Under the pieces are notes generated by a model. That model was given only the letters and a program-made list of their open reading frames with translations, was not told where the DNA came from and ran no database searches. This document shows, in pieces, positions 13,331 to 14,200 of a DNA stretch of 64,000 nucleotides. The stretch lies in the IMG/VR virus record IMGVR_UViG_3300049617_000306. The stretch is one strand, 5' to 3'. The stretch is from a virus. A program made the translations under genes and the position numbers. Position 1 is the first letter of the stretch. Each line of letters starts with the position of its first letter.

Positions 13331-13952
13331 AGACAGTCCCTCGGTGTGGAGCAATCGTGGCCGCGTGCTGCGTGGCCGCAGTGATGTTGGGACTGACGTG
13401 AAGCGTCCTGCCGAAGTCGCCGCTGCCGATAACGGGAGCGCGACCAGCCTTGGGTATGAGGGGCATCTTCTTCAGCGCCCCTGCCATGGCCGAGGGGGGA
13501 GGAATGGCGAACGTACCCATCGCCCCGATCTTGAGCCGGCCGATGGTGGCAATCTTGCCACCGCTCTCGAAGGGAGGCGCGTGGGTTGCCGGGGCGGGAT
13601 TCGAGGCGTACTCGCCGACATGCTCCTGCTGCATGTACTTGCGCAGGCGTCCGACCTCCGCGTGCTGGTCGAGCCCTCTGCGCACCAAGGGGACGGCCCC
13701 CATGCCGATAGCCCCTGACGCGGCCGCGCCGAGAGCGCCGCGCGCGGTCGGCAGCCTGCCGTGTTCGATGGAGTGACTGACGGCCTTGCCGAGGACACCA
13801 GCGCCGGCGCCGAGGACACCGTAGCGAGCAACCTGTCCAGCCGTGGGCCTCTCCTTCTCGAGAGACTCGAGCCGGTCGACAGCACGTGACGCCTCCTCGT
13901 GGGAAACGAAACCGAGCTTCACCAGCTCGTCCAGCGTACTGAGAAAGTTCAC
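13320..13952 (-). CDS. putative head-internal protein with glycine zippers
   Basis: FLSTLDELVKLG leader; GVLGAGAGVLG. Confidence 0.6.
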   Translation of the reverse strand: MNFLSTLDELVKLGFVSHEEASRAVDRLESLEKERPTAGQVARYGVLGAGAGVLGKAVSHSIEHGRLPTARGALGAAASGAIGMGAVPLVRRGLDQHAEVGRLRKYMQQEHVGEYASNPAPATHAPPFESGGKIATIGRLKIGAMGTFAIPPPSAMAGALKKMPLIPKAGRAPVIGSGDFGRTLHVSPNITAATQHAATIAPHRGTVYAG

Positions 13953-14194
13953 GGCGCAATCCTGTGCTTCAAGAGCTCGGCTGTCGGAGACCCGGCAAGG
14001 ATGCCGAGGCCCGCGAGCTCGGACAAGGGTTTGGCCACGTGCGGAAGCACAGTGCGCTTCTCCACGCCGTCTTTGCTGTAGTCACCCGCGAGTGCCGCGC
14101 GCGCGTGGGCCTGCGCCTCGTCGACGCTGGGGGCTGCTAGCACTCCGAGACCAGTGAGTTCTGCCGCGTGCGCACCGGCAGAACTCGTCAGCCT
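13949..14194 (-). CDS. -1 frameshift extension of the 14188-15261 protein
   Basis: open -1 frame RLTSSAGAHAAELTGLGVLAAP... after G GGA AAA. Confidence 0.6.
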   Translation of the reverse strand, partial: RLTSSAGAHAAELTGLGVLAAPSVDEAQAHARAALAGDYSKDGVEKRTVLPHVAKPLSELAGLGILAGSPTAELLKHRIAP

Positions 14195-14200
14195 TTTCCC
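14156..14200 (-). other. programmed -1 ribosomal frameshift signal
   Basis: in-frame G GGA AAA, 7-nt spacer, 11-bp stem GAGTTCTGCCG/CGGCAGAACTC. Confidence 0.7.

Follow-up and report, generated by a model that had tools for sequence, protein, structure and literature searches.

The locus analysed here belongs to a large uncultured phage. The stretch occurs in moss-metagenome runs, and among the sequencing runs that hold it none is listed as RNA. The window, that is, the whole 64 kb of DNA submitted to analysis, is phage-like, with a GC content of 65%, and it is a dark contig, almost without family matches. Its relatives are IMG/VR contigs of 110-195 kb. Downstream, in the order of transcription, of genes coding for proteins of 1189, 632 and 1009 residues lies an open reading frame (ORF) of 357 aa that is at the core of the present work (Table 1). 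Its GC content by codon position (0.65/0.47/0.80) is coding-like. The protein contains a repeated FAVTE.GH...AAKKHEQGHNAWNP module, in two copies, and has FDRTKTAGMLGSLGKG at its end, immediately before the stop codon. Eleven homologues of this ORF were found. Searches of Pfam, PHROG and PDB with the ORF gave no match; Pfam and PHROG hold no family for the gene, for the module encoded after it, for the neighbours or for ten homologues, and a PDB sequence search gave no match. No relative of the 357-aa protein, or of its homologue P0002, was found in IMG/VR or GTDB genomes, and in cultured phages neither the 357-aa part nor the module part was matched. Short proteins cut off at an end resembling the 357-aa C-terminus were also searched for, and not found. 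The preliminary description of this DNA had labelled the gene as that of a putative head protein. The sole, indirect hint on this label comes from P0009, in which a homologue (E = 2e-13) of the window's 424-aa ORF (59103-60377), an ORF itself without an assigned role, is joined to the core module found in the 357-aa protein.

In the 0 frame of the minus strand, the end of the ORF reads C CTG GGA AAA GGC TGA. The preliminary description had seen at this place a canonical -1 frameshift signal, made of an in-frame heptamer, a 7-nt spacer containing the stop codon and a perfect 11-bp stem. All three elements were recovered, the heptamer in the expected register and the stem with a calculated free energy of -19.7 kcal/mol. 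The putative stem-loop is located within the coding sequence of the module, where it corresponds to codons T5 to L15 of the -1 frame, and the z-score of its local fold is -2.6. We found no U-tract after it, no terminator call and no Rfam match. The -1 frame is open from 14200 to a stop codon at 13951-13949, so that it adds 81 residues after Lys356, for a predicted trans-frame product of 437 aa. Upstream of the heptamer, this frame is closed by a stop codon 26 codons away, with no start codon in between. Its first ATG, GTG or TTG is the GTG at 14143, which lies inside the first ELTGLG-V-LAAP motif and is preceded by no good Shine-Dalgarno sequence. A weak Shine-Dalgarno-like element further upstream, read from its letters, could possibly act as a stimulator of the shift, with some uncertainty.

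Table 1. Features of the locus, followed by the second candidate site of the window (positions counted from the first letter of the window).
Feature	Position	Strand	Description or basis
0-frame ORF, 357 aa, family not recognised	14188..15261	minus	ORF list and translation
Weak Shine-Dalgarno-like GGGGA	14214..14218	minus	13 nt upstream of the heptamer; read from sequence
Slippery heptamer G GGA AAA, register X XXY YYZ	14194..14200	minus	encodes the conserved Gly-Lys of the module
7-nt spacer GGCTGAC, containing the 0-frame stop TGA (14190-14188)	14187..14193	minus	sequence
Putative stimulatory stem-loop	14156..14186	minus	11 perfect bp (14186-14176 / 14166-14156), 9-nt loop, -19.7 kcal/mol
-1 frame extension, 81 codons and stop	13949..14194	minus	conserved two-helix module, E-L-x-G-L-G-x-L-A motif present twice
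Earliest start codon (GTG) available in the -1 frame	14141..14143	minus	segment residue 20, inside the first conserved motif
Next gene, 210 aa	13320..13952	minus	GTG start overlaps the -1 frame stop (GTGA, 13952-13949)
Second candidate -1 site, C CCA AAA	60799-60793 (region 60374-62103)	minus	nine codons before the stop of a 443-aa ORF

The segment encoded by the -1 frame belongs to a large family. When its 83-residue translation was searched exhaustively with HMMER, 103 protein clusters, counted at 50% identity, were matched, with a best E-value of 2e-27. In most of them the module makes the last ~75 residues, as the C-terminal domain of longer, otherwise diverse proteins. The duplicated motif that had been noticed in the 81 extra residues is indeed there, and the duplication is shared by the whole family, with E-L-A-G-L-G-x-L-A-x-P as its consensus in two copies, where E14, L15, G17, L18 and G19 are nearly invariant. 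The module is absent from GTDB genomes, and a degenerate DNA pattern combining heptamer and module retrieved nothing from IMG/VR. As judged from these alignments, we are dealing with a widespread phage module, present in more than 100 clusters, without a Pfam family and previously unannotated. Predicted by AlphaFold from the family alignment, it folds as a helical hairpin, with helices at residues 5-37 and 56-80 and a mean pLDDT of 75. Foldseek found no significant match to this model, and the matches in the ESM Atlas (PHP_C) were dismissed, since they are below the recognition threshold. The segment had been described at first as a hydrophobic module. Hydropathy does not support this: in windows of 19 residues the Kyte-Doolittle mean peaks at 1.15, below the level of transmembrane segments, and we rejected a transmembrane reading on this account.

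The family also bears on where the translation of the module begins. The HMMER alignments start at segment residues 1-13, upstream of the GTG that encodes residue 20, in line with the initial remark that the first copy of the motif begins before the first available start codon. In a profile built from 63 homologues having at least 30 residues upstream of the module in the same protein, the sequence starting at the GTG scores 91.5 bits. The score rises to 112.7 bits when the reading starts at the heptamer, and the slipped fusion, gapless from K346, reaches 113.4 bits. The 17 residues preceding the GTG, with the near-invariant E-L-x-G-L-G among them, are therefore worth 21 bits, while the 0-frame part of the junction brings only 0.7 bits. 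It follows that the codons from the heptamer to the GTG are translated in the -1 frame although they include no start codon, and that the whole module could not be produced by independent initiation. The peptide LTSSAGAHAAELTGLGVLAAPSVDEAQAHAR could be obtained only by translation upstream of the GTG. These figures weigh directly on the simplest view of the locus, namely that of two separate genes, the second of which would begin at GTG 14143 and make a 64-aa protein with a truncated module. The hairpin would then be an intergenic RNA element, involved in stability, processing or attenuation, and the heptamer a coincidence. It is the arrangement that gene callers chose, both for this locus (P0119) and for three relatives (P0013, P0127, P0128). 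Judged by GC content per codon position, a clear coding signature begins only at the GTG; the 19 codons between heptamer and GTG, a short stretch constrained by the stem, give 0.68/0.68/0.53, which is not coding-like. Other perfect hairpins of the window sit directly after genes. Besides the loss of 21 bits, however, initiation at a GTG with no good Shine-Dalgarno sequence would halve the predicted first helix, the hairpin has no U-tract, and the presence of a rare GGA-AAA pair would be left without explanation. Two separate genes are in our view quite improbable.

How the two frames should be joined is best seen in homologues where the junction is not broken. The boundary at a K-T-A motif, which the preliminary description had placed just before the module, recurs in homologues as K-T-A-G. 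In L014 the single-frame junction reads KTAGVLGTIGKTLASEAGTHKAELAGLG, and in P0025 it reads KTAGSLLARMGKAVSSETGAH; in the window, KTAGMLGSLGK in frame 0 is followed by RLTSSAGAHAAELTGLG in frame -1. P0019 and P0021 likewise run through the junction in one frame. It is only after a -1 slip at the heptamer that the sequence of the window fits these single-frame homologues, and it then aligns with them gaplessly. This continuity of the protein sequence is seen mainly in a few close homologues. At the Gly-Lys position, the in-frame homologues use GGT AAG or GGC AAG, which are not slippery, and they lack a comparable perfect stem, the 51-nt folds ranging from -3.1 to -28.8 kcal/mol. At two places encoded by the arms of the stem the window differs from the family consensus, with E to S at residue 7 and K to A at residue 12. 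This suggests that conserved residues may have been given up for the stem.

The junction may also be absent altogether. The modules are free-standing in P0125 and P0018, and also in L017, where an ATG is found 5 nt after the upstream stop codon. In L002/L017, the module, with its own ATG, opens an ORF that continues into a homologue of the next gene; module and next gene are a single ORF in P0014 and P0029 too. In G002, the closest syntenic relative available, the module has its own ATG. Because its linkage to the neighbours varies in this way (in frame, free-standing, or fused to the next gene), the module is a movable unit. Other relatives seem to share the break seen in the window, when read at the protein level. 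P0002, 41% identical overall, ends with KTAGVLSNLGKA and a stop, one codon past the same Gly-Lys, and the gene calls of P0013, P0128 and P0127 (89, 79 and 70% identical) all begin at the internal GTG used for the window. With the module intact downstream, this makes the break look old and maintained. Plain fusions lacking both heptamer and stem had been proposed at the outset as the observation that would speak against recoding. They do exist among the distant homologues, while the closest relatives seem to share the break; we do not read the former as a refutation, since heptamer and stem sit exactly where the frame is broken.

A shift of one base in a run of adenines calls for a more trivial account, either a fixed one-base deletion in a broken, decaying gene, or an assembly error, with no recoding at all. 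Indeed, the loss of one A from GGA AAA AGG would yield exactly this sequence, and many homologues are plain fusions. Independent contigs are of help here. X1, a 25.5-kb Logan contig possibly derived from the source sample, is identical over the stretch. X6, a contig of 151 bp from another sample and another study, covers 14167-14317 without a change. X10, a variant contig at 95%, covers 14145-14344 without gaps, its listed substitutions all fall outside 14176-14202, and it retains the heptamer, the stop codon and the 5' arm of the stem. In the module it carries S42N, E47K and G70A, the very substitutions of P0013. The indel that it had seemed prudent to look for at the heptamer is therefore not seen in contigs from three metagenome runs, one of them from another sample and one a 95% variant. 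Furthermore, the downstream module keeps every family-invariant residue and a coding-like composition, relatives at identities as low as 41-70% seem to have the same break, and neither the hairpin nor the rare codons would be explained by a one-base deletion. A deletion or an assembly error appears to us very unlikely.

The codons and the hairpin are both uncommon in this DNA. In about 15,000 codons of confident ORFs, GGA makes 8.4% of the glycine codons and AAA 5.1% of the lysine codons. The Gly-Lys pair is written GGA AAA once in 68 occurrences, at the heptamer site itself, and GGC AAG in 51 of these 68. As for hairpins, the 64 kb hold eight distinct perfect ones of at least 10 bp, which makes 17 hits when nested variants of stem and loop are included, vs. 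a mean of 1.6 perfect-hairpin hits in first-order Markov shuffles. Some of the others carry terminator-like T-runs; the hairpin at 14186-14156 has none. The rarity of GGA-AAA, together with that of perfect hairpins of at least 10 bp, makes the signal more than a chance assembly of its parts. The last position of the heptamer is an A, where G is best in E. coli.

Coincidence of the rare slippery codons would again have to be accepted if the ribosome, having terminated at TGA 14190-14188, restarted at CTG 14191-14189, in a CTGA overlap, to make a free module of 80 residues, with the hairpin blocking independent initiation. Such a restart would keep all 21 bits of upstream conservation. It would also be in keeping with the free-standing modules of relatives (P0125, P0018, L017) and with the GTGA overlaps used at gene junctions of this phage. 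CUG, however, is a very poor start codon in bacteria, the leucine encoded by this CTG is a conserved internal residue of the module, and the free-standing modules begin about seven residues further upstream, in the portion that the window encodes in its 0 frame. We hold reinitiation to be very improbable. Yet another way to obtain the same protein would be slippage of RNA polymerase, which would add an A in the A4 run, so that some mRNAs would encode the fusion directly. At known sites, transcriptional slippage needs some 6-9 or more identical bases in a row; a run of four As is too short for it, and a hairpin at ribosomal spacing would have no role to play. Transcriptional slippage is known in phage and bacterial genes, according to PMC5009743; here, it is extremely unlikely.

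All four of these explanations, a 64-aa gene, reinitiation at CTG, deletion or error, and transcriptional slippage, are weaker than a programmed -1 ribosomal frameshift at 14200 appending the 81-residue segment, which we consider to be the probable reading of the sequence. The process could be pictured as follows. A ribosome positioned on G GGA AAA would have tRNA-Gly in its P site and tRNA-Lys in its A site, while the 11-bp hairpin, 7 nt downstream, would stand at the mRNA entrance and hold it there. If the host is GC-rich, the rare AAA codon in the A site may also make the ribosome pause. A fraction of the ribosomes would then slip back by one base (GGA to GGG, AAA to AAA), bypass the TGA and read 81 more codons. 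Two products would result, a 357-aa form ending in ...LGKG and a 437-aa form ending in the two-helix module. The shift would set the ratio of the module-bearing to the module-free protein, the module possibly being an adaptor, of which the dose would be set in this way, and the GTGA overlap might couple the next gene to shifted ribosomes. The signals, the conserved module and the unbroken junction of the homologues are seen in the sequences; the slipping at 14200 is predicted from them.

Similar arrangements have been described for C-terminal -1 frameshift extensions of phage structural proteins. The review PMC5009743 lists the T3/T7 capsid proteins 10A/10B, the major head protein of Lactobacillus phage A2 and Listeria phages A118/A500, as well as extensions by Ig-like domains; the latter are mobile, and whether they are in frame or out of frame depends on the phage. 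The locus resembles the T3/T7, A2 and Listeria cases, as presented there, in having a slippery site a few codons before the stop codon of a gene of the presumed virion region, with a short and a long form sharing the same N-terminus. It resembles the Ig-like extensions, in the same review, in that the added unit is mobile, in frame in some phages and out of frame elsewhere. It differs from the latter in that the unit is an unannotated helical module, on a carrier of no recognised family. The possibility that the segment itself is an Ig-like domain (Big_2 and similar) was considered and rejected, as it has no Pfam match, an all-helical model and no significant Foldseek match.

Escherichia coli dnaX, which makes tau and gamma at A AAA AAG, shares with our locus a heptamer ending in a lysine codon, a short spacer and a stem-loop of about 11 bp. 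It has in addition an upstream Shine-Dalgarno-like element, to which the weak GGGGA is possibly equivalent. Unlike what is proposed here, the shifted product of dnaX is the shorter one, by early termination, where ours would be longer by a domain, and the protein family is another one. Phage lambda uses G GGA AAG as the shift site between its genes G and T. This heptamer, nearly the same as ours, is highly shift-prone in E. coli according to PMC5009743. As with lambda gpG/gpGT, the shift would occur near the end of the upstream ORF, with the presumed role of fixing the ratio of two products; unlike lambda, which is without a strong stem, there is here an 11-bp stem, and the gene, 357 aa long, follows large tail-type genes instead of lying directly before the tape measure gene. 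A G/GT pair of tail assembly chaperones was rejected accordingly: the ORF has 357 aa, it is past genes of 1189, 632 and 1009 aa, and it has no match to a chaperone family.

The proposed frameshift mechanism is ordinary, and our knowledge of frameshifting itself is unchanged by this locus. What is new here is the module and its carrier. Public gene calls at the locus give a 357-aa protein and a 64-aa stub that lacks a third of the conserved domain. Recognising the frameshift restores a 437-aa product and defines a widespread module. It also provides a clean natural comparison: among related phages, this one junction may be in frame, be frameshifted, or be followed by a module with its own initiation. 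Slippery codons occur only at the broken junctions, and a comparable perfect stem is missing from the in-frame homologues. This favours the idea that a frameshift site can evolve once a mobile domain has landed out of frame.

The window holds a second candidate of the same kind (Table 1, last line). In confident ORFs there are only three in-frame heptamers of the type X XXA AAZ, all within nine codons of the end of an ORF. At 60799, a stem starts 7 nt downstream of the heptamer, and the -1 frame contains an ORF of 136 aa. The relative G002 has the same break, and the equivalent position there reads C CCT TTA; G001, G003 and G005 are plain fusions, with both parts of the locus in one frame. The heptamer has changed and its slipperiness has been kept, which is the usual mark of a programmed site, and this phage group appears therefore to use -1 shifts. 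From this comparison of sequences, 60799 is likely to be a second -1 frameshift site. A perfect AAGGAGG is observed 16 nt upstream of the heptamer in both frameshifted genomes, and AAGGAAG in the fused G001. A further heptamer, C CCA AAC at 58190 (58178-58190, minus strand), four codons before the stop of a conserved 306-aa ORF, was rejected as a frameshift site: the next gene starts at a GTG of its own, within a GTGA overlap, and its homologues align only past this start codon. It is plausible, if still tentative, that this lineage uses -1 frameshifting repeatedly, at 14200 and 60799 at least, to attach movable C-terminal modules to a shuffled, tag-bearing family of proteins, each junction being in relatives an in-frame fusion, a frameshift or a separate gene. 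Were this true, we would have a natural system in which to watch frameshift sites arise as modules land out of frame.

Several observations of the genomic surroundings deserve to be recorded. AAA codons are rare in confident ORFs (33 of the 652 lysine codons), and eight of these 33 are found among the final 18 codons of an ORF, where frameshift sites and the ribosome-binding sites of downstream genes may account for them. The gene cluster spanning 8569-16012, with its homologues P0014-P0045, codes for bead-like proteins built from shuffled modules. These comprise an F-x-D-E-L-x-K tag, YPIPD..HA..ALGFAKMHGD, FAVTE.GH...NAWNP, glycine-rich stretches and the ELAGLG module. The latter is joined to homologues of the 246-aa protein in P0042 and P0045, while its partner in P0037 bears a HELGH metalloprotease-like motif. 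The variant contig X10 joins 14344 to 14654 and 14688 to 15028, skipping 309 and 339 bases. Both numbers are multiples of three, so that the variant phage may lack both repeat modules of the 357-aa protein, with some uncertainty, as the depth of the contig is low and repeats are involved. Finally, the 306-aa protein (58178-59098, minus strand) is, among the genes tested in relatives, the best conserved, with 44-69% identity. It has no match in Pfam, PHROGs or PDB, and a single-sequence AlphaFold model reaches a pLDDT of 32. With its invariant cysteine cluster C..C.C...C..C, it is probably a key virion protein of no recognised fold.
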